From assembly GCA_016188355.1 (NCBI GenBank), contig JACPHY010000001.1, forward strand, positions 38,125 through 102,124: a stretch of DNA of 64,000 nucleotides, in the 5' to 3' direction. The stretch's first letter is position 1. Each line of letters opens with the position of its first letter. Both the position numbers and the translations under genes were made by a program. The notes below the pieces were generated by a model, which did no database searches, had not been told where the DNA came from, and worked only from the letters and a program-made list of their open reading frames with translations. This DNA is from Candidatus Uhrbacteria bacterium (lineage in GTDB: Bacteria > Patescibacteriota > Patescibacteriia > JACPHY01). Shown one piece after another: positions 2,957 through 64,000 of the stretch.

Positions 2957-4300
2957 TCACTGGAGCGGCAAGATCCACAGCCCCGCGGTGGTACCGCGAC
3001 GACCGGAAATGAGGAGCGCGGTGCCATGGGCTTGTACGGTGATATGGTGGATCACGTCGAATGCAGCGAGCGGAATGGTGATGGGGCGATCGGGTTCGCT
3101 GGTACGGGTGGCGGCGATATCGCGTCCAGTCGCAAAGAACACGTAGGGTGCGGATGGATGCCAAATGGCGTCCACGATCGGCGTTTCTCGTCGCGCGAGG
3201 AGCGCGGGAGGATTGGGGTCGTGCGTCGCCCAGAGCTCGAATGGATTGGTCCACCAAATTTCCCCTGCATGCTCTGGATGGAGACGAGAGAGGAGATGGG
3301 GTTGTGTGCGGGAGGTGCCAGTACGGAGATCAATGGTGATGCGTTGCGCTGGACCTTCGGCGTGCAGCTCGACCGTACGATCCGTCGCCTTCGTGATGGC
3401 GGTGATACGGGTGCGGGGCGGCAATGCCGCGATCGGTTGTGGAGCATCGCCATTGAGCGGCCATGCGTGGACTGTGGCATCCGCTACGGTGTACATCGTG
3501 GTGCGGGTGGCGCCAAATGGAGTGGTGGGCGCAGGAACGGGGAGCGCGGTCGCTCGTCCGGTGGTGCGATGGATGCGATACAGGGTGCGGTTGCTCACCG
3601 CAAGAATGCCGAGGGTGTCGCCGAGTTCCCACTGGATGATCGATGGGAATGCGGGGAGGCTCGCGTGGAGCGTGACGACCCGTTGCGGGTCGGCGGGGTT
3701 GATGAGCAATGCCGTCGTTGGGGTCGTCACCAGCACGAGTGCGCCGGTGGGTGACCAGGTGGTGGTCAGTGGTGCGCGTGGGAGCTCCGGGTGCGCGGGC
3801 TGTGGAGTACGGAGCACGATGCGGCTCTCGAGGGTGCGGAGATCGAGCATCCAGAGCTCGGTGAAGCTCGGGGTATATCGGAGGAATGATGCCCAGCGTT
3901 GGTCCGCGCTCGTCGAGAGTGCCGTGACGTCCCCCGATTGGAGGAGCAGGGGTGCGGTGTCGCGGATGAGGAGCATGTCTCGAAGGAAGGATGCTCTTCC
4001 GTTCGTGACCGTGACCCGCTCCTCAATGGGGTGAAATCCTTCCCGTTCGACGCGGACGGTATAGGTGTTCGCTCCGATGCCACCAATATGGGCAGGGAGA
4101 CGTTGTGCGCGAATGGATCCATTGATGCGCACAATGGCATCAGTGGGAGTGCCATCGATCACCAGGAGGCCGGTCGTTTCGAGACGCCGCTTTCCCGGGT
4201 GATACCGGTATCCCATGCTGTAGAGTGCAAGCATGGGCGCGACAACCAAAAAGAGTACAATGAAGGCGAAATAGATGGTGCGACGAATCCAGAGTGGCAC
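2957..4300 (-). CDS. Membrane-anchored hypothetical protein with N-terminal TM helix and PEGA domain, followed by a beta-rich Thr/Pro-rich domain (GTG start).
   Basis: N-terminal hydrophobic segment IYFAFIVLFLVVAPMLALY. PEGA-like LVIDGTPTDAIVRINGSIR...TYTVRVEREGFHPIEERVTV. Confidence 0.55.
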   Translation of the reverse strand: MPLWIRRTIYFAFIVLFLVVAPMLALYSMGYRYHPGKRRLETTGLLVIDGTPTDAIVRINGSIRAQRLPAHIGGIGANTYTVRVEREGFHPIEERVTVTNGRASFLRDMLLIRDTAPLLLQSGDVTALSTSADQRWASFLRYTPSFTELWMLDLRTLESRIVLRTPQPAHPELPRAPLTTTWSPTGALVLVTTPTTALLINPADPQRVVTLHASLPAFPSIIQWELGDTLGILAVSNRTLYRIHRTTGRATALPVPAPTTPFGATRTTMYTVADATVHAWPLNGDAPQPIAALPPRTRITAITKATDRTVELHAEGPAQRITIDLRTGTSRTQPHLLSRLHPEHAGEIWWTNPFELWATHDPNPPALLARRETPIVDAIWHPSAPYVFFATGRDIAATRTSEPDRPITIPLAAFDVIHHITVQAHGTALLISGRRGTTAGLWILPLQ

Positions 4301-4306
4301 AAATGA

Positions 4307-5668
4307 ATGACGGAAGAGTGTATCTTCAGCTTACCTTACATGCGTTTTCTCATCGATGGCCCTACTACAATTCACGGTAGCATTTCGGTCGCGGGGGCGA
4401 AGAATGCGGCGCTCCCGTTTCTTGCGGCATCCATTCTCCTGGATGCGCCGTTGGAAGTGCATCGGGTACCGATGATTGAGGATGTGCACCGCATGCTCGA
4501 GATCGCGCATCGGCTTGGAATAGCGATTGATGCGGTCGCTCCTGGTGTCTATCGGCTTACTGCTGCTGGATGTACGACGAGCGAGCTTCCTGCAGACCTG
4601 ACCCCGAAGCTGCGCGCGGCAATTATTTTTACGGGACCGCTGCTCGCGCGTTGGGGATCGACGGTGCTCCCGCAGCCCGGAGGATGCACGATTGGTCAGC
4701 GTCCGATCGATCTTTTTTTAGATGGATTCCGCGCATTCGGAGTAACCGTCACCGAGGAGGCGGCAGGGACTCGATTTACGGGGAAGCCGCGATCGGCACG
4801 ATACGTATTTCCGTTGGTGAGCGTGACCGGTACCGAGACGCTGCTCTTGCTCGCCGTGCGAACGCCCGGAGTTTCGGTGCTCGAGAATGCGGCCATGGAA
4901 CCCGAGGTGACCGCACTGGCGCAATTGCTCCAATCCTGCGGCGCGCATATCGAAGGGATCGGCACGCCCACGCTGGTGATTCGCGGCGTGGAGCATCTTT
5001 CGGGTGGGGTGGTGACCTGTATTCCGGATCGCATTGAGACGGGTGCGTTCGCGGCGCTGGTCGCCGCATGCGGCGGGTCGCTCGAAATTCGTGATTGTGA
5101 TCCCACGCAAATAGCGGTTCCCCTCAAACTCCTCGAGGACATGGGGGCAACCATTGCGACCGATGCCACTGCCGGAGTCATCCGCATCAGCGCGCAACTG
5201 CCGTTGCGTGCGATTTCCATTCGGACCCATGAATACCCGGGATTGCCGACGGATCTGCAGCCGCCGTTCACGGTCGCACTCACCCAGGCGAGTGGGCTGG
5301 CGTTGGTGCATGAAACGATTTACGAGGGTCGTCTGTTCTACGTTGATAAATTGAACAAGATGGGGGCGAATATTACCTTATGCGATCCGCATCGTTGCCT
5401 CGTGGCGGGGCCTCGTCCGCTGCACGGTGCGCGTCTCGAATCGCCGGATATCCGTGCTGGTATCGCGCTCCTCATTGCTGCCGCATGCGCGACTGGTCGG
5501 AGCGTCATTGAAAACGTGTACCAAATTGATCGAGGGTTTGAGCGCATTGAGGAGCGCCTTCGGGATATCGGGGTGCGTATTCAGCGAGAAGAAGAGGGGG
5601 CACACCAGCCTAGTGCGCCCATCGCACTGCCTGATTCTCGATCGCCGCAGGGGGTGGTAGGCTACTAG
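4307..5668 (+). CDS. murA: UDP-N-acetylglucosamine 1-carboxyvinyltransferase (start possibly ATG 4340)
   Basis: MRFLIDGPTTIHGSISVAGAKNAALPFLAASILLDAPLEVHRVP... is the canonical MurA N-terminus. Full-length ~440 aa. Confidence 0.9.
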   Translation: MTEECIFSLPYMRFLIDGPTTIHGSISVAGAKNAALPFLAASILLDAPLEVHRVPMIEDVHRMLEIAHRLGIAIDAVAPGVYRLTAAGCTTSELPADLTPKLRAAIIFTGPLLARWGSTVLPQPGGCTIGQRPIDLFLDGFRAFGVTVTEEAAGTRFTGKPRSARYVFPLVSVTGTETLLLLAVRTPGVSVLENAAMEPEVTALAQLLQSCGAHIEGIGTPTLVIRGVEHLSGGVVTCIPDRIETGAFAALVAACGGSLEIRDCDPTQIAVPLKLLEDMGATIATDATAGVIRISAQLPLRAISIRTHEYPGLPTDLQPPFTVALTQASGLALVHETIYEGRLFYVDKLNKMGANITLCDPHRCLVAGPRPLHGARLESPDIRAGIALLIAAACATGRSVIENVYQIDRGFERIEERLRDIGVRIQREEEGAHQPSAPIALPDSRSPQGVVGY

Positions 5669-7562: not shown

Positions 7563-9233
7563 ATGACGAAATACATCTTTGTCGTTGGCGGAGTCATGTC
7601 GGGTGTGGGGAAGGGGACGGTCACGGCGTCGCTGGGAACAGTGCTCCAGGGGAAGGGATTCCGGGTGACCGCGATGAAAATCGATCCCTACGTCAATGTG
7701 GATGCGGGGACCATGAATCCCATCGAACATGGGGAAGTGTTCGTGACGGATGATGGTGATGAAACTGATCAGGACATCGGATCGTACGAGCGGTTTCTCG
7801 GACAATCGCTCGGGAAGGTGAACTACATGACGACGGGGCGCGTGTATCAAACCGTGATCGCGCGTGAGCGGAATCTCGAATACGAGGGACGGTGCGTTGA
7901 GGTCGTGCCGCACATCCCCGAGGAGGTCATTCGGCGCATTGATGCGTGCGCGGCGACGCGTGACGCGGAGATCGTGCTCATTGAAGTGGGGGGGACGGTG
8001 GGTGAATATCAGAATGTGCTGTTTTTGGAAGCGGCACGACTCCTGAAGTTGGAACGACCCAAAGATGTCGTGGTGATGCTCGTCTCCTATCTCCCGGTAC
8101 CAGGGCATATCGGTGAGATGAAAACAAAACCAACGCAACACGCGACGCATCTCCTCCAAGCGGCGGGGATTCAGCCGGATTTTATTGTGGCGCGCGGTGA
8201 GCGCGAGTTGGATGCACCGCGACGACGGAAGCTCTCCATGTTCTGTAACGTCGGGCCTGATGATGTGATCGCAGCTCCCGATGTGGCATCGACGTACGAG
8301 GTGCCGATCAATTTTGACCGGGAGGGGGTTGGTGATCGGGTGTTGCGCAAGTTGGGGCTTCGGCCGCGACAGCGGGATCTCTCGGCCTGGAAGGGACTGC
8401 TCGATCGCATCGCCACCGCAACTGATGAGGTCCATATTGCGGTTGCGGGGAAGTATTTTTCTACTGGGAATTTCGTCCTCTCCGATGTGTACCTTTCCGT
8501 GATCGAAGCGATTCGCCATGCGGCATGGGCGGAGGGGAAAAAACCGGTGCTCACGTGGTTGAATACGGAAGTGTACGAACAAGATGCGACGGCGCTTGCG
8601 GAATTGGATGCGTTCGACGGCGTCATTATTCCTGGGGGATTTGGCTCGCGTGGCGTTGATGGGAAAATTCGCGCGATCCAGTATCTTCGTGAACATCGCA
8701 TTCCGTACCTGGGATTGTGCTATGGCATGCAGCTCGCCTGTGTGGAGTTCGCGCGCAATGTGCTGCAGCTCCGCGGAGCACACACCACGGAAATTGATGC
8801 GGACACGAAGTACCCGGTGATTGCGCCCATGACCGATCAGATTGCGAAACTCAAGGCGGCGGCATTTGGCGGGACGATGCGGCTTGGTGCCTATGCGTGT
8901 CGGGTGCAACGGAAGACGATCGCGGCAAGTGCCTACGCAGGAACTCCTGTCGTGCAGCGCTCGTACGCGAATGGCGACCTGGTCATCGCGGAGCGTCATC
9001 GCCATCGGTACGAATTCAATAACGCATTTCGAAAGCAATTTGTGGCGGGCGGGCTGGTCATCGCCGGGGTCCATCCTGAGCGTGATCTTGTGGAGATCAT
9101 TGAGCTACCGAAAACGGTGCACCCATTCTTTGTGGGAGTGCAATACCATCCGGAGCTTATCAGTCGACCATTGCAGCCGCACCCACTCTTTGTCGCGTTC
9201 ATACGTGCGGCGGGTGCGCGAACCACATCGTGA
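7563..9233 (+). CDS. pyrG: CTP synthase (ORF is open from 7548; ATG at 7563 gives the canonical MTKYIF start)
   Basis: MTKYIFVVGGVMSGVGKGTVTASLGTVLQ... Glutamine amidotransferase domain with GLCYGMQ. Confidence 0.92.
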   Translation: MTKYIFVVGGVMSGVGKGTVTASLGTVLQGKGFRVTAMKIDPYVNVDAGTMNPIEHGEVFVTDDGDETDQDIGSYERFLGQSLGKVNYMTTGRVYQTVIARERNLEYEGRCVEVVPHIPEEVIRRIDACAATRDAEIVLIEVGGTVGEYQNVLFLEAARLLKLERPKDVVVMLVSYLPVPGHIGEMKTKPTQHATHLLQAAGIQPDFIVARGERELDAPRRRKLSMFCNVGPDDVIAAPDVASTYEVPINFDREGVGDRVLRKLGLRPRQRDLSAWKGLLDRIATATDEVHIAVAGKYFSTGNFVLSDVYLSVIEAIRHAAWAEGKKPVLTWLNTEVYEQDATALAELDAFDGVIIPGGFGSRGVDGKIRAIQYLREHRIPYLGLCYGMQLACVEFARNVLQLRGAHTTEIDADTKYPVIAPMTDQIAKLKAAAFGGTMRLGAYACRVQRKTIAASAYAGTPVVQRSYANGDLVIAERHRHRYEFNNAFRKQFVAGGLVIAGVHPERDLVEIIELPKTVHPFFVGVQYHPELISRPLQPHPLFVAFIRAAGARTTS

Positions 9234-9268
9234 TTTGGTGTGGTCGCACGAAGGTGATGACATCGTAC

Positions 9269-9296
9269 GCACCCGCCCTCCATGGAGGGCGGGTGC
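9269..9296. terminator. Perfect 12-bp-stem palindromic hairpin (gcacccgccctc/catg/gagggcgggtgc) between convergent pyrG and rpmA. Putative bidirectional terminator (no U-tract).
   Basis: Self-complementary sequence read directly. Sits between two convergent gene ends. Confidence 0.5.
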
Positions 9297-10018: not shown

Positions 10019-10456
10019 GTGGCTCATCTGACTGGACGATCGCTCCGTGAGGTATGTCGGATCCTGGGTGCGCACCCGGGAGCACGATGGCTGCTCCTGG
10101 TTGCAGTGGTTTGCACTGCGGGTACATGGATTACGGTTTTGGCAATCCCGAGGATTCCGGGTAACGACACCGTGGTGACGCATTATTCCACCACATTTGG
10201 CATTGATGCGTTGGGCGCCTGGCGGCAACTCTTCCGACTGCCGAGCATTGCCACGATTCTGTTGGGTATGAATGTGGGTATCGCCGTCGCGAGTATTCGG
10301 GCGACACGACCGGATGCGCACCCTGTGCCCCTTCTCCCGCCGGCGGCACAGACCATGCTCATTGCATCGGCACTCTTGAGTGCCGTGGCGCTCGTGGGAG
10401 CGCTCTTCTTGCTCCGGGTGAATCTTCATTATTTCGGAAGCTCGGGTGCGATATGA
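10019..10456 (+). CDS. Hypothetical polytopic membrane protein (ORF open from 9935, but that part overlaps the palindrome; GTG 10019 is a plausible start). Stop overlaps the mraY start (ATGA).
   Basis: Several hydrophobic helices (WLLLVAVVCTAGTWITVLAI, IATILLGMNVGIAVASI, MLIASALLSAVALVGALFLL). Translationally coupled to mraY. Confidence 0.45.
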   Translation: MAHLTGRSLREVCRILGAHPGARWLLLVAVVCTAGTWITVLAIPRIPGNDTVVTHYSTTFGIDALGAWRQLFRLPSIATILLGMNVGIAVASIRATRPDAHPVPLLPPAAQTMLIASALLSAVALVGALFLLRVNLHYFGSSGAI

Positions 10457-11514
10457 TCACGCCGGATCCAGTCGTGCAGGCAACCGGACGGGTGTTCCTC
10501 CTGACCGCCGCAGCATTCGTGGTCACCATGGCGTGGACGCCACTGCTGGCGCGTTTGTTGTACCGCTACAAGCTTGGCAAGAATATCCGTCTCGCTTCCG
10601 ACGCGCCGGTATATGCGAAGCTGCATGCGCATAAGGCAGGGACGCCCACCATGGGCGGCGTGCTCATCTGGGTGACGATGCTGGCATTCGCGGGTTTTTT
10701 CGCACTCGCTGCCGCATTCCACATCCCGGGATTGCGCATCCTCCATTTCGTGAATCGCGAAGAGACGCTCTTGCCGCTCGGGGTGCTCCTTGCTACCGCG
10801 GTGGTGGGCCTGGGAGATGATCTCATGAACATCTTTCGGATTGGTCCGAAAGGGGGGGGATTGCGGATGCGGCATCGGGTGGTCCTGTACGCGGCGATTG
10901 CGGCGGTGGGGGCATGGTGGTTCGTGGATAAGCTCGAATGGACGACCACGCGCATTCCGTTTGTGGGGCCGGTCGATTTGGGGTGGTGGTTTGTGCCGTT
11001 TGCGATACTGGTGCTGTTTGCGACCGCGCACTCCGTCAATTTGATTGATGGCCTCGATGGTCTCGCCGGGGGAACGGTGCTCACGGCGTACGGCGCGTAT
11101 GGGGCAATCGCGTTCGTGGAGGGACGGTACCATCTCGCCGCTTTTATTGGGGTGCTCGTGGGAAGTTTGCTTGCATTTTTGTGGTTCAATATTCCTCCAG
11201 CGCGATTCTTCATGGGAGATACCGGAGCCATGCCACTCGGTATTACGCTTGGGGTCATCGCACTGCTCACGAATGAACCCTTCCTGCTGTTTATCATTGG
11301 ATTCCCCTTTGTCCTGGAGTCGCTCTCAGTGATTGCACAGATGATGGCACGGCGTTGGTGGGGACGTCGTCTTTTCCGATCGTCGCCGCTGCATCATCAT
11401 CTTGAGGCGATGGGATGGCCAGAATCGAAAATCGTCATGCGATTTTGGGTGATTTCCGGTGTCATGGCAGTGGTGGGGCTCACGATATTTCTCCTGGATC
11501 GTAGTGCGTGGTAG
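10453..11514 (+). CDS. mraY: Phospho-N-acetylmuramoyl-pentapeptide transferase
   Basis: N-terminus and conserved DDxxN-containing loops (GLGDDLMNI..., HSVNLIDGLDGLAGG). Confidence 0.9.
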   Translation: MITPDPVVQATGRVFLLTAAAFVVTMAWTPLLARLLYRYKLGKNIRLASDAPVYAKLHAHKAGTPTMGGVLIWVTMLAFAGFFALAAAFHIPGLRILHFVNREETLLPLGVLLATAVVGLGDDLMNIFRIGPKGGGLRMRHRVVLYAAIAAVGAWWFVDKLEWTTTRIPFVGPVDLGWWFVPFAILVLFATAHSVNLIDGLDGLAGGTVLTAYGAYGAIAFVEGRYHLAAFIGVLVGSLLAFLWFNIPPARFFMGDTGAMPLGITLGVIALLTNEPFLLFIIGFPFVLESLSVIAQMMARRWWGRRLFRSSPLHHHLEAMGWPESKIVMRFWVISGVMAVVGLTIFLLDRSAW

Positions 11515-11526
11515 CGGCAGCCGCGT

Positions 11527-12675
11527 ATGCGTACGTGGAAATTGATGGAAGGGGAGCGGCAATTCATGATTGCGCTTGGGGTATTGGTGGTGCTGGGATT
11601 GTTGTTTCTCTCCTCGGCGAGTGCGCCGCTCGCGTATGAGCGGTTCGGCAATCGTTCCACATATGTGCTCCATCAGTTGACCTCCGGGATCCTCCCGGGC
11701 ATTGCGGCGTTTTTCTGCATGCGGAAGGTGCGCACCTCGTTTTTGCAGCGCGCGGCCATTCCGTTGCTCGTGGGGAGTGTAGCGTTGCTGGTGCTCATTT
11801 TCGTTCCGGGCCTCGGAGAAGCGCACCAGCGGACGCGGAGCTGGCTGTCGCTGGGTCCGCTAACGTTCCAGCCGGCAGAAATAGCAAAACTAGGACTCAT
11901 TCTGGCGCTCGCGGCATGGGCGACCGTGCGTCGGCCGGAATGGTTCGTCCTCACGTCTTGGTGGCGCGGGTTGGTGCCGTTTCTCCTCGTGTTCGGCACC
12001 GTGGCGGGTCTGGTTGCTGTGCAGCCTGACGTGGGTACCATGTCGATTCTCACCGCGATCGCGATCGGTATGGCGATTGCCTCCGGCCTGCGTTGGATGC
12101 ACCTTGGTGCATTGGTGGTTGGCGTGGTGGGGGTGATCGGAGCCCTCATCGCCGCGGCACCCTATCGGCTCGCGCGGCTGACCGTGTTTCTCCATCCCGA
12201 ACTCGATCCGCGCGGGATTGGGTATCAGGTGAATCAGGCGCTTTTGGGAATTGGATCTGGCGGAGTGTTCGGGGTGGGTTTGGGGCATTCTCGTCAGAAG
12301 TTCTCGTTCCTCCCTGAGGTGATTTCGGATTCCATTTTTGCGATTATTGCCGAGGAAATAGGATTTTTGGGGTCGTTGGCTTTTATCGCGGTGTTGGTTT
12401 GGGTGATTGCACTGGTGCTGCGCAGGGCCATGACGGCGACCGATGCATTTGAGCGTCTCGTGCTCGTCGGGATCGCAGCCTGGTGGGGATCGCAGTCAAT
12501 CGTGAATATCGGGGCGATTATTGGACTGCTCCCGCTGACCGGTTTACCGTTGCCTTTCGTGAGCTATGGGGGGACGTCCATGGTCGTGGCACTGGCTGCA
12601 GCGGGGATTGTGGCACAGGTATATGCACGCGACCGCGCCGGAGAGCGGGTGCGGGGATCATGGCGGAGGAATTAA
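11527..12675 (+). CDS. ftsW: SEDS-family peptidoglycan glycosyltransferase FtsW/RodA
   Basis: 10 TM pattern. Conserved PEVISDSIFAIIAEEIGFLG and LPLPFVSYGGTS motifs. Confidence 0.85.
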   Translation: MRTWKLMEGERQFMIALGVLVVLGLLFLSSASAPLAYERFGNRSTYVLHQLTSGILPGIAAFFCMRKVRTSFLQRAAIPLLVGSVALLVLIFVPGLGEAHQRTRSWLSLGPLTFQPAEIAKLGLILALAAWATVRRPEWFVLTSWWRGLVPFLLVFGTVAGLVAVQPDVGTMSILTAIAIGMAIASGLRWMHLGALVVGVVGVIGALIAAAPYRLARLTVFLHPELDPRGIGYQVNQALLGIGSGGVFGVGLGHSRQKFSFLPEVISDSIFAIIAEEIGFLGSLAFIAVLVWVIALVLRRAMTATDAFERLVLVGIAAWWGSQSIVNIGAIIGLLPLTGLPLPFVSYGGTSMVVALAAAGIVAQVYARDRAGERVRGSWRRN

Positions 12676-59989: not shown

Positions 59990-60061
59990 CGGGTGTGGCG
60001 ACGCGGTGATGGTTTTCCCCCGAAGCCCTTCGAGATTCGTGGTACATTGGAGAAAACCGTT

Positions 60062-62197
60062 ATGCGGCTACGGGTTCGGGTGGTCGTGGGCGCGTGCATG
60101 ATGACGGCAGTGGCGGTGCTCCTGCCGCGTTTTGTATTTGCGGGAGCCCAAGAGAATGCAACGGGATGGGCGTGGAGTGCGGCGGCGGGATGGATTTCCA
60201 TGAACTCCACGAACTGCACGACACTCAACGCACAGCAGGCGAGCGACCCTCCCTGTGGTGCCGGATACTCGTATGGCGTCCATGTGTCGGATACCGGGTA
60301 TCTCACGGGACATGCGTGGTCGCGGACCTTGGGATGGATTTGTGTGGGTGCTTCGTGTACGGGGACCGCAGGAGCGGTGCCGGCGGGAGGATGGCGCGCT
60401 CGTGCGAATGCGCTGACCGGTGAGGTGGTGGGGTGGGCAAAGATATTGTCCTCCGGGGATTCCGGGTGGATTTCGTTTTCTTGTGAAAATACGCGCACCT
60501 GTGGGACGGTGGCCTATCGGACGACGCTCGATGTCGCTATGGGACAGTTCTCTGGTCACGCGTGGAATGGAGCGCGTTCGACCACAGGAACGGAGTTGCC
60601 AGCGATTGGATGGATTGCGTGGCGGCCATCGTACGGTGGAGTATCGACCACATGGCATCCAGAACCGCGATGCTCGGAAACGGGACGTGCGTGCCGCACG
60701 AATTTCGAGTGTGAATTGCCGGGCGAGTTGTGCTGTTTGGGTGGTGCGCCCTGCGGCAGGTGTGGTGGTGCGGGAGCGGAATGTGGTTTGAGCGCAACCT
60801 GTAATGCGGGAACCATCTGCTGTTTACCGGGGATTGCGTGCGGGCGTTGCGTGGCCGACGGAAACACGTGTGGGAACAACGCGGAATGCACAGGTGGTGG
60901 ACGAGATTCCTGCTGTCCGCCGGGCGCGCTATGCACGCGCGACATCGACGCTCGTGGCGGAGGCGCGTCGGGTGGTGGCGTTCCGCTGTCTGCGGTGGGG
61001 TTCTGTTCCGGGACTGGAACGGGGTGCGTGGATGATGCGCAGTGTCCCGCGGGGGTGGCGTGCGTATTTGACCGGGGTATGTGTACCCAGCAGGAAGCGA
61101 GTCAGTGCACGTTGGGATCCGCGTGTGCTGGCGAGGGATCTTCCTGTGATGCCGATATTGGACTTTGCGATCGGAACGATGCGAACGGAAATACGATTCC
61201 TTGTTTGAGTGATGGGTGGTGCGCGTCTATGGTGGGCGCAGGTGCAGAATGTCGGAAAATCGTCGGGAAGTGCACCAATGGAGAGGAGCGGCTCTGTGTG
61301 GATGATCGGAACTGTACGCGCGAGAGCAGTCGTTGTGGTCAGCTGTACCTTCCGTGGGTGCAGACGCAATTCGGAACGGTATACAGCGCGGGTCGAGTGG
61401 GGAGCGTACGGACGCCGCCGCCGCCCGCGGGGCAGTACAATGCGACCTACTGTGTGCTTTCCGGTGGTACGATCGTGAATTTTTTGAGCGCGGAGGGGTG
61501 TGGCGCAGCGTCACAATCGTCCTACGGGCAACTTGCATTGCCGAAGCATCCCGATTATGTGGGTACGCTCGCGCGTTTGGATGTGGACGGCATTCGATCT
61601 GGTCGGTATGGCGCCCCACAGGAGTTGCCGGTGACGCATTCGGGACAGCAGCTATCGCCGTGGACTGGTACGGTGACACTGCGAGGAGCGGTGTATCTCG
61701 TCGAAGGTCGGGATGTGGAAATCGGTGATCAGGGGCTGGTGATGCAGAATGCGGTGGGGGATCAGAGTGGCGCGGGAACCGTGATCATCCGCGGCGGAAA
61801 TCTCCGCGTGCATGGGAATATCTCCTACCCTGTTGCCGATCGTGCACCCACCAACATCCGCCATCTTGCATCTCCGGGTTGGTTGGTGCTGCGCGATGCG
61901 AATGGTCGTGGCGGCGACATCATTATCGATCCCCCCGTCTCCCAATTGGTGGGCGCATTTTATGCGGAAGGAGAGATACGTACGGGATCTACCGGTCGCG
62001 CAGCGACCGATGTGCCGCTTGCGGTTCGGGGTGTGCTGATTGCTCGGCGATTGCTTTTCGAGCGACTGCGATCACGCGGTGGACAGCCCGCTGAACAGGT
62101 GACTGCAGATGGCCGTGTGCTCGCAAATCCGCCACCGGGATTCGGTGACCTCGCGCGTTCGTTGCCGCAGGTACGTGTGGTCGCACCAAATCCGTGA
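60062..62197 (+). CDS. Secreted Cys-rich protein: signal peptide, four GxAWSxxxGWI(x)F-type repeats, a ~230-aa Cys-rich (35+ Cys) central region, and a C-terminal beta-helix-like domain. ORF open from 59993.
   Basis: MRLRVRVVVGACMMTAVAVLLPRFVFA signal. Repeats GWAWSAAAGWISMNS, GHAWSRTLGWICVG, GWAKILSSGDSGWISFSC, GHAWNGAR...GWIAWRPS. Immediately upstream of pilM. Confidence 0.55.
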   Translation: MRLRVRVVVGACMMTAVAVLLPRFVFAGAQENATGWAWSAAAGWISMNSTNCTTLNAQQASDPPCGAGYSYGVHVSDTGYLTGHAWSRTLGWICVGASCTGTAGAVPAGGWRARANALTGEVVGWAKILSSGDSGWISFSCENTRTCGTVAYRTTLDVAMGQFSGHAWNGARSTTGTELPAIGWIAWRPSYGGVSTTWHPEPRCSETGRACRTNFECELPGELCCLGGAPCGRCGGAGAECGLSATCNAGTICCLPGIACGRCVADGNTCGNNAECTGGGRDSCCPPGALCTRDIDARGGGASGGGVPLSAVGFCSGTGTGCVDDAQCPAGVACVFDRGMCTQQEASQCTLGSACAGEGSSCDADIGLCDRNDANGNTIPCLSDGWCASMVGAGAECRKIVGKCTNGEERLCVDDRNCTRESSRCGQLYLPWVQTQFGTVYSAGRVGSVRTPPPPAGQYNATYCVLSGGTIVNFLSAEGCGAASQSSYGQLALPKHPDYVGTLARLDVDGIRSGRYGAPQELPVTHSGQQLSPWTGTVTLRGAVYLVEGRDVEIGDQGLVMQNAVGDQSGAGTVIIRGGNLRVHGNISYPVADRAPTNIRHLASPGWLVLRDANGRGGDIIIDPPVSQLVGAFYAEGEIRTGSTGRAATDVPLAVRGVLIARRLLFERLRSRGGQPAEQVTADGRVLANPPPGFGDLARSLPQVRVVAPNP

Positions 62198-62287
62198 GGC
62201 GGTGCTTGTTCGTGCGAGGGAATTTTGTCCGTCCATGGTACGATGGATGTGGATAATGATCCGCCACAAATCGAGTGAGGCTTCTGT

Positions 62288-63364
62288 ATGGGTTTTTTTT
62301 CACGAAAACCGGAGAACTATCTTGGGGTCGATATTGGCGCAGGGGGCATCAAGGTGGTGGAGCTGCGCAGTGATAAACACCGCGCGCGATTATCGACGTA
62401 CGGTTTTGCGGATGTGGTGACGGCCACGGAGAATCCCGCATCTAATTTGAGCGGAGATTTGGGGGAGACGTCCGCCATTCTCCGGGAGATTCACGCGCGT
62501 GCACATGGGGAGGCGACCCGAGCGGTGGCAAGTCTCCCGATTGCGGCAGTATTCAGTTCGATCATTTCGCTGCCGCGCATGGGTAAAAAAGAGCTGCCCG
62601 CAGCGGTTGCTTGGGAGGCAAAGAAGATCGTGCCACTACCGATCGAGGACATGATTTTGGATTGGAAGTTGCTCACGCCGGAGTCCGAGCTGACGAAGAA
62701 AGACGGTGCGAGTACTATCCGCGTCCTGCTCACTGGTGCCGCGAAATCGCTCGTCGGACAATACCTGACCGTATTCAAGCAAGCGAAATTGGAGCTCGTG
62801 AGTCTCGAGACCGAGGCATTCGCATTGATTCGATCTCTCGTGGGTGATGATCCCTCCGTAGTATTAATTTTGGATATTGGCGCTGCACGAACCTCCATGG
62901 TGGTGGTGGATGATGGGGTGCCGGTGCTGAGTCGAGGAGTGGATGTGGGCGGGAACCACATCACGGCAGCTATCGCGAATGCGCTCGGAACGAGCGCGGA
63001 TGATGCGGAGCAGGTCAAGCTCGATCTCGCGGTAGCGGCTATCGGAAATCCCGCGGCGGCGGCGCTTCCCGCCATCCTCGCGAATGCCGTTGCCCCGGTG
63101 GTGCAGGAGGTGCGGTACGGCATGAATCTCTACCTTTCCCAGGAGAGCGCTCGAGGTCGGGTGGTGGAAAAAATCATCCTTGCGGGGGGAAGCGCGCTGC
63201 TCCCGGGCATCACGGAGATTTTTGCGCAAGCGCTTGATCTCCGGGTGTTTGTGGGGGATCCTTGGGCACGCGTGATTTATCCGGTGGATCTCCGCCCCAC
63301 GCTGGATGCGATTGGTCCGCGATTTGCGGTGTCGGTGGGTCTTGCGATGCGGGAGATCCATTGA
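62288..63364 (+). CDS. pilM: Type IV pilus assembly ATPase-like protein PilM
   Basis: LGVDIGAGGIKVVEL (actin-like phosphate-1). ILDIGAARTS. IILAGGSALLPGI. Typical ~355 aa. Confidence 0.8.
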   Translation: MGFFSRKPENYLGVDIGAGGIKVVELRSDKHRARLSTYGFADVVTATENPASNLSGDLGETSAILREIHARAHGEATRAVASLPIAAVFSSIISLPRMGKKELPAAVAWEAKKIVPLPIEDMILDWKLLTPESELTKKDGASTIRVLLTGAAKSLVGQYLTVFKQAKLELVSLETEAFALIRSLVGDDPSVVLILDIGAARTSMVVVDDGVPVLSRGVDVGGNHITAAIANALGTSADDAEQVKLDLAVAAIGNPAAAALPAILANAVAPVVQEVRYGMNLYLSQESARGRVVEKIILAGGSALLPGITEIFAQALDLRVFVGDPWARVIYPVDLRPTLDAIGPRFAVSVGLAMREIH

Positions 63365-63384
63365 TGGTCTTTCTGGATACCGCA

Positions 63385-64000
63385 TGACGCGTATGTCACG
63401 TACTCCGTCCTTCATTCCAGAAGAGGTGCGTCGTACACCGAAACGAGCAGCTACCGCTTCGGCGGGCGACAAGGATGCGTTTTATATTCCCGCACGATCG
63501 GATAAGAAGGTCGCGGCAACACCGATAGCTGATCCTCCCATTGCGGAATCCACTGCGGAACCGGCGGTAGTACCGCATTCGGTATCACCGCCTGCGGTAT
63601 CGTCGTCTACGCCCCAGCCGACGGAAGTCGGCATCAATACCGACCTGCACATTCCTGCGGCATCCACTATGCGGGGAGAAGGGGGTGGTATCACGCTCAT
63701 TCCGGAGGAACTTCGTGCTACTGCGACTGCGCCGCCGTGGTGGCCGATGTGGGTGGGTGGAATTGCGACTGCCCTTGCGGTTTTGTTGATTGGCGGCACT
63801 TGGTTCACGCTATCGCGGCTCATTGCGCGCGAGTGGGAGGTGGTCGGCGCATTGGAGACCCGGCGGGATGGCCTTCGGAAGCAGTTGGCTGAATCCGAGC
63901 GCGCACTTGAACCGCTCCGTGCGACGGCGCGTCGTGCGACGGCGGTCACGAAATTACTCCCATCGCATCGACGTTGGGGGCCGGTGTTTGCGCTCATTGA
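63385..64000 (+). CDS. PilN/PilO-like pilus assembly protein, partial (runs off the right edge of the window): Pro/Ala/Ser-rich cytoplasmic N-terminus, one TM, then coiled-coil
   Basis: Open frame from ATG 63385 to the window end. TM PMWVGGIATALAVLLIGGTWF followed by REWEVVGALETRRDGLRKQLAESERALEPL. Position right after pilM. Confidence 0.45.

Follow-up and report, generated by a model that had tools for sequence, protein, structure and literature searches.

Results

Gene X encodes a Sec-type secreted protein directly ahead of pilM

The window, by which we mean the whole stretch of 64,000 nucleotides from a Candidatus Uhrbacteria bacterium that was analysed, carries on its plus strand a gene for a modular secreted protein of 711 aa, hereafter gene X (60062..62197, stop codon at 62195-62197), which was delimited from its open reading frame and its homologues. 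Its ATG at 60062 lies 8 nt behind a Shine-Dalgarno-like GGAGA read in the sequence (60049..60053, plus strand), and this start position is common to 13 full-length homologues in the alignment. GTG 59993 was considered as an alternative start and ruled out by the homologues and the ribosome-binding site. Fourteen full-length homologues of the protein were found, with identities of 44-49%.

As a previous sequence-only reading of this DNA had proposed, the protein begins with a signal peptide, which is of the Sec type (aa 1-27; 60062..60142, plus strand). The N-terminus, MRLRVRVVVGACMMTAVAVLLPRFVFA followed by GAQ, was read by eye and displays a basic n-region, a hydrophobic core and an AxA-like site with predicted cleavage between VFA and GA. 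Other family members have a comparable hydrophobic N-terminus and an AxA-like site just ahead of the first repeat. No Pfam or NCBIfam model matches the gene X protein. With regard to a prepilin (class III) leader or N_methyl motif, neither PF07963 nor TIGR02532 gave a match at E ≤ 1, unlike for the true prepilins of the same operon, which do match N_methyl; the lack of a prepilin leader rules out that gene X encodes a pilin. Furthermore, the protein shows neither a membrane anchor nor a sortase motif nor a pilin fold.

Gene X is followed on the same strand by pilM (62288..63364, plus strand), which encodes an actin-like type IV pilus assembly protein of 358 aa matching PF11104 (2.2e-38) and TIGR01175 (1.5e-48; 165.6 bits, above the cut-off of 133). 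The spacer between the two genes (62198..62287, plus strand) is exactly 90 nt long and contains no terminator-like or promoter-like site. Both the co-oriented 90-nt spacing and the identity of pilM had thus been recognized correctly. The next gene (63384..64000, plus strand) is cut by the window end; on a contig that is identical to the window over 4499 bp and runs beyond its end (L182), it encodes 304 aa in full. This gene had been called pilN, an assignment that holds by position and topology, with one transmembrane helix (WWPMWVGGIATALAVLLIGGTWF) followed by a predicted coiled coil, but not by family model, as there was no match in Pfam; we refer to the product as PilN-like. Weak homologues of it are encoded directly after pilM in three other loci (L075, L042 and L050).

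The N-terminal part consists of Trp-rich repeats and a Cys-rich region

The signal peptide is followed by a Trp-rich module of four repeats (aa 28-203; 60143..60670, plus strand), which was delimited with a repeat HMM and a profile search and represents a degenerate form of a 38-aa GYAWSENIGWISF repeat. The units lie at about aa 32-79, 80-120, 121-161 and 162-203, and the module contains 12 Trp in 176 aa. The number of tandem units agrees with the earlier description, but the strict motif G(W/H)AWSxxxGWI given for all four is present in units 1 and 2 only; unit 3 reads GWAKILSSGDSGWISF, and unit 4 consists of GHAWN, an 11-aa insert and IGWIAW. An HMM built from the repeats of unrelated proteins alone scored 64.7 bits on the gene X protein, and the N-domain profile retrieved 196 proteins at E ≤ 0.01 among 5.8 billion sequences, which argues that the repeats are not due to chance.

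The 38-aa repeat is widespread in secreted proteins of several phyla. The previous failure to place the GxAWSxxGWI repeat in a known family was confirmed, since no curated family was found; the literature on the motif yielded nothing relevant, and a comparison of the N-domain profile with PDB sequences gave nothing meaningful. Judged from its sequence, the 38-aa GYAWS-type repeat is an undescribed family without a curated model. In one case, a bona fide prepilin (P0122) carries the Trp-rich repeats as a fusion at its C-terminal end; it is encoded on another CPR contig right after pilB-pilC (L007).

We also compared the repeats with the ChW (clostridial hydrophobic W) repeats (PF07538), which are likewise short, Trp-containing repeats of extracellular proteins, whereas the gene X type comprises 38 aa and has its own consensus (NLSGYAWSENIGWISFSCENTGSCGTVDYGVTIDADGG). 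PF07538 had no match in the gene X protein at E ≤ 1. Among ten relatives of the repeat module, P0087 alone passed (23.5 bits, cut-off 22) and P0106 remained below the threshold (E 0.035), while several matches of the N-domain profile carry PF07538. At the level of sequence, the likeness of the Trp-rich repeats to ChW repeats appears marginal.

The repeats lead into a Cys-rich region, defined by Cys count and alignment (aa 204-426; 60671..61339, plus strand), which contains 34 of the 43 Cys of the protein. The region is as rich in Cys as had been claimed in kind, but the count of 34 in 223 aa is slightly lower than the more than 35 in about 230 aa reported earlier. Its first 88 aa are made up of three six-Cys units of ~30 aa each (aa 204-234, 235-263 and 264-291). 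In the homologue alignment, Cys is invariant in about 40 columns; the region differs in length among homologues, and CDxDGxCxxGE-type units are inserted into it in other family members. An EGF/knottin-like character, as previously suggested, found no support in the sequence: neither EGF, knottin nor any other curated Cys-rich model of Pfam or NCBIfam matched at E ≤ 1. The full-length AlphaFold model of the protein, computed from 14 sequences, had a pLDDT of 52.9, with values <50 for aa 204-310 and of 70-86 for aa 310-420 in the Cys-rich part, and was left out of the fold search because of its poor quality.

The C-terminal domain is a solenoid of a large family without annotation

The conserved C-terminal domain (aa 427-711, 285 aa; 61340..62194, plus strand) was modelled separately with AF2 (pLDDT 91.0, pTM 0.90). 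The model predicts a triangular beta-solenoid of the ComZ / ice-binding-protein type with no long alpha-helix alongside it, and the beta-rich C-terminal domain postulated earlier is hence borne out by structure models. Among solved structures, the model comes nearest to the solenoid of ComZ, a tip pilin of Thermus. A near-invariant motif, ADGRxxANPPPGFxDLxxSLP, sits at the end of the domain.

A word-indexed search with the C-domain profile gave five close relatives, and the full family was obtained by an exhaustive HMM search, which returned at least 1030 protein clusters at E ≤ 0.001 (269 at E ≤ 1e-30). The gene X protein scores 435.9 bits on this profile and displays the traits of the family, i.e. 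the 285-aa domain at the C-terminus, the DGRxxANPPPG motif, the Sec leader and pilM directly 3' of its gene. The domain invariably closes the protein at its extreme C-terminus and is preceded by N-terminal parts of 200-1800 aa. Family members measure between about 450 and over 2000 aa, and their middle parts are unrelated. Trp-rich repeats are present in 82 of 142 C-domain representatives.

A search of PDB sequences with the C-domain profile gave nothing meaningful. When 26 diverse C-domains were compared with Pfam, DUF3494 had no match at E ≤ 1. The choice-of-anchor A model matched two of the 26 weakly (best E 0.0098) and DUF7305 matched four (best E 0.021), with P0196 at E 0.0032; membership in either family was dropped because these matches were too weak, and the literature on DUF7305 yielded nothing relevant. 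The resemblance to DUF3494 or type 1 ice-binding proteins (3wp9, 6bg8, 7bwx and 5uyt) concerns the fold only, since gene X lacks both a match to their family model and the long helix beside the solenoid, and its context is pilus assembly as opposed to cold adaptation. The C-terminal solenoid domain is a large family without annotation.

The family is linked to pilM but is an accessory of the pilus operon

Loci encoding the C-domain were identified with a DNA pattern back-translated from DGRxxANPPPG and a subsequent HMM check, which removed 8 chance matches of the pattern in non-CPR genomes. pilM was found directly downstream of the C-domain gene and on the same strand in 70 of 74 loci, which stem from GTDB species genomes of different Patescibacteria. 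This adjacency (95% of loci) spans C-domain divergence down to about 35% identity. The upstream neighbour, on the other hand, varies: RNase H is found there in 16 of 44 loci, and RecJ, which lies two genes upstream of gene X in the window, occurs in the neighbourhood in 11 of 44. The proposal that gene X is not a random neighbour of the pil genes is upheld by these counts, and a chance association with pilM was rejected, as the 70 of 74 loci speak against it.

Examination of related pilM loci revealed that 26 of 63 contain gene X and 37 (59%) do not, and that the gene X-bearing loci are patchily clustered on the PilM tree. Because gene X is present in only 26 of these loci, it is an accessory and not a core gene, and its absence from 59% of them rules out a core part of the machine.

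The accessory distribution would agree with a protein whose secretion the pilus assists, or with a pilus-independent adhesin of the cell surface or the extracellular space that is merely co-transcribed; in either case, the protein would not be stably built into the filament. Parallels for such a protein are TcpF and CofJ of type IVb pili. Another parallel is provided by the tapirins of Caldicellulosiruptor, secreted adhesins that bind cellulose (bioRxiv 10.1101/359786) and that resemble the gene X protein as secreted non-pilins with a beta-helix C-terminal domain, which adjoin a type IV pilus locus in a bacterium without outer membrane. The Sec leader and the lack of a membrane anchor, sortase motif and pilin fold also speak for this explanation, as do a few paralogues located away from pilM (L076, L095) and the fact that the genes of Trp-rich repeat proteins often lie apart from pilus genes (L008, L009). 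However, mere co-regulation leaves unexplained why the most conserved domain, 285 aa in length, is fixed at the C-terminus across >1000 clusters of otherwise hypervariable proteins, and why this domain comes closest to a pilus-tip module; in addition, a passenger gene would not usually stay beside pilM so strictly, in 95% of loci and at C-domain identities as low as about 35%. We consider this explanation unlikely.

On L182, gene X and pilM are followed by pilN/O-like genes, a gene for 92 aa, pilB, pilC, a pilin gene, pilD and four small pilin-like genes, and the same order was also found in L001-L006. On L182, the PilN-like and PilO-like genes occupy 3883-4797 and 4800-5378, the major pilin gene 8725-9291, and the four small pilin-like genes 10138-10713, 10720-11334, 11373-12083 and 12109 onwards. 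The sequence-only reading had suggested looking for pilO and pilQ just beyond the window edge; L182 carries pilN/O-like genes there, and none of the genes called on L001-L006 and L182 was assigned to a secretin family. The idea that gene X encodes a secretin-associated factor was abandoned, given that the operon on a contig identical to the window lacks a secretin. This agrees with the reported absence of PilQ from CPR bacteria (PMC6744442). The L182 operon also contains no PilY1 and no pilin large enough to hold a solenoid of this kind.

In such a secretin-less system, the gene X protein could act as an envelope part of the pilus machine, with its ChW-like repeats binding the wall or S-layer and its solenoid contacting PilN/PilO-like ectodomains, and serve the filament as a collar or guide. 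In favour of this scenario, gene X lies immediately ahead of pilM and the pilN/O-like genes and not beside minor pilins, PilQ is missing from the operon as it is from CPR bacteria, and some repeat relatives touch the ChW model of clostridial surface proteins (see P0087 above). A collar, though, would be expected wherever the machine occurs, yet 37 of the 63 related pilM operons do without gene X; it would also be expected at a fixed size, which is at odds with a family of about 450 to >2000 aa with unrelated middle parts, and no oligomerisation or membrane-anchoring feature was seen in the gene X protein. A function as a collar hence strikes us as quite improbable.

Discussion

The fold of the C-terminal domain relates the gene X protein to proteins of the pilus tip. 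ComZ of Thermus thermophilus (PDB 6qvi), a competence-associated pilin for which a position at the pilus tip has been argued (PMC6561018), has a triangular ice-binding-protein-like beta-solenoid without a long flanking helix, as does gene X, and each of the two has its gene in a type IV pilus locus. However, the two solenoids share only 16% identity with no sequence-level match, and ComZ is a pilin whose GspK-like pilin fold takes up the solenoid between its last two strands, whereas gene X has a Sec leader and carries its solenoid as a free C-terminal domain behind 400 aa of modules. DNA binding is a further feature of ComZ.

As the closest structure, ComZ, binds DNA and is required for transformation (PMC6561018), gene X might encode the DNA receptor of a competence pilus, whose ComZ-like solenoid would bind extracellular DNA for the uptake needed by nucleotide-auxotrophic CPR bacteria. 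Both pili and genes for competence are found widely in these bacteria (PMC6744442), a gene for a ComF-like phosphoribosyltransferase lies divergently beside pilM in several loci without gene X, and RecJ is encoded close by in the window, although the RecJ neighbourhood is not conserved (see above). Yet the DNA-binding lysines of ComZ are located between its pilin and solenoid domains, and gene X has no pilin domain; neither a DNA-binding motif nor sequence similarity to ComZ was found in gene X, and adhesins that bind glycans or proteins are the more usual setting for Trp-rich repeats and Cys-rich stalks. A role as DNA receptor is thus very unlikely in our view.

The same solenoid type is present in cyanobacterial PilX, a proposed tip plug that replaces PilY1 (bioRxiv 10.64898/2026.02.12.705559). 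Compared by description only, as PilX is available as predicted models, both proteins have a bulky triangular solenoid that resembles ice-binding proteins. PilX is thought to cap or plug the tip where PilY1 is missing, and PilY1 is also missing from the gene X operon; in the PilX proteins, however, which are pilins, the solenoid forms an insertion of the pilin fold, whereas the gene X protein is no pilin. By analogy only, the gene X protein may also be likened to PilY1/PilC of proteobacterial type IVa pili. PilY1/PilC, which is not a pilin either, also has a Sec leader; its N-terminal part is variable and adhesive, and its C-terminal domain is conserved and serves for docking on the minor-pilin complex. 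It differs in its C-terminal beta-propeller (PF05567), for which gene X has no match, its C-domain being modelled as a solenoid, and in being encoded with minor pilins, whereas gene X lies ahead of pilM. This analogy also draws on the discussion in PMC12206443 and bioRxiv 10.64898/2026.02.12.705559.

Our preferred working model, to which we assign a probability of roughly 0.45, is that the gene X product is a non-pilin adhesin that docks on the type IV pilus via its solenoid. According to this model, the protein would be exported by the Sec pathway and fold oxidatively, whereupon the C-terminal solenoid would dock non-covalently on the pilus, most likely on the priming and capping complex of minor pilins. 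There it would supply in trans a bulky tip plug of the sort furnished by the insertion in ComZ and cyanobacterial PilX and, in proteobacteria, by PilY1. The disulfide-rich Cys-rich stalk of variable length and the Trp-rich repeats would face outwards and bind to the surface of a host or partner cell, the ligand probably being a glycan or a polymer of its cell wall, and extension and retraction of the pilus would then result in attachment. A conserved C-terminus combined with a variable N-terminus is what one would expect where a conserved domain for docking on the machine is coupled to a part that binds ligands and diversifies. The pilus-associated tip adhesin of the sequence-only reading gains real but indirect support from the ComZ-like fold; its location at the tip and its role in adhesion are putative.

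Several observations speak against this model. ComZ and PilX are held in the filament by their own pilin fold, and because gene X has none, its docking in trans is an assumption of the model. Gene X adjoins the pilM-N/O-like alignment genes and not the minor pilins. The paralogues in L076 and L095, finally, are not found beside pilM.

A more far-reaching version of the model is possible but rather doubtful. It holds that the family, which is apparently CPR-restricted and undescribed, delivers a ComZ/PilX-type tip plug in trans in the form of a Sec-secreted protein with hypervariable N-terminal modules. The family would then be the determinant of host or surface specificity of the pilus in Uhrbacteria-like and related Parcubacteria-type episymbionts, and would replace PilY1 in secretin-less cells.

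CPR/Patescibacteria presumably live attached to other microbes. The sole attachment device that has been shown experimentally is the type IV pilus, namely in Saccharibacteria (PMC9894109, PMC12206443), and the gene X protein is a good but unproven candidate for the cell-gripping part of the pilus. Should it be only a co-transcribed adhesin, its interest would be moderate. Independently of its role, two unannotated families could become curated models, the 38-aa GYAWS-type repeat of several phyla and the C-terminal solenoid domain, and the idea that a ComZ-like tip module works as a separate non-pilin subunit is now testable. By joining a conserved, pilus-linked domain to a fast-varying outward part in a subset of pilus operons, the family is a candidate for host recognition that can be tracked by sequence, and its variable N-terminal part could mark host range in metagenomes.

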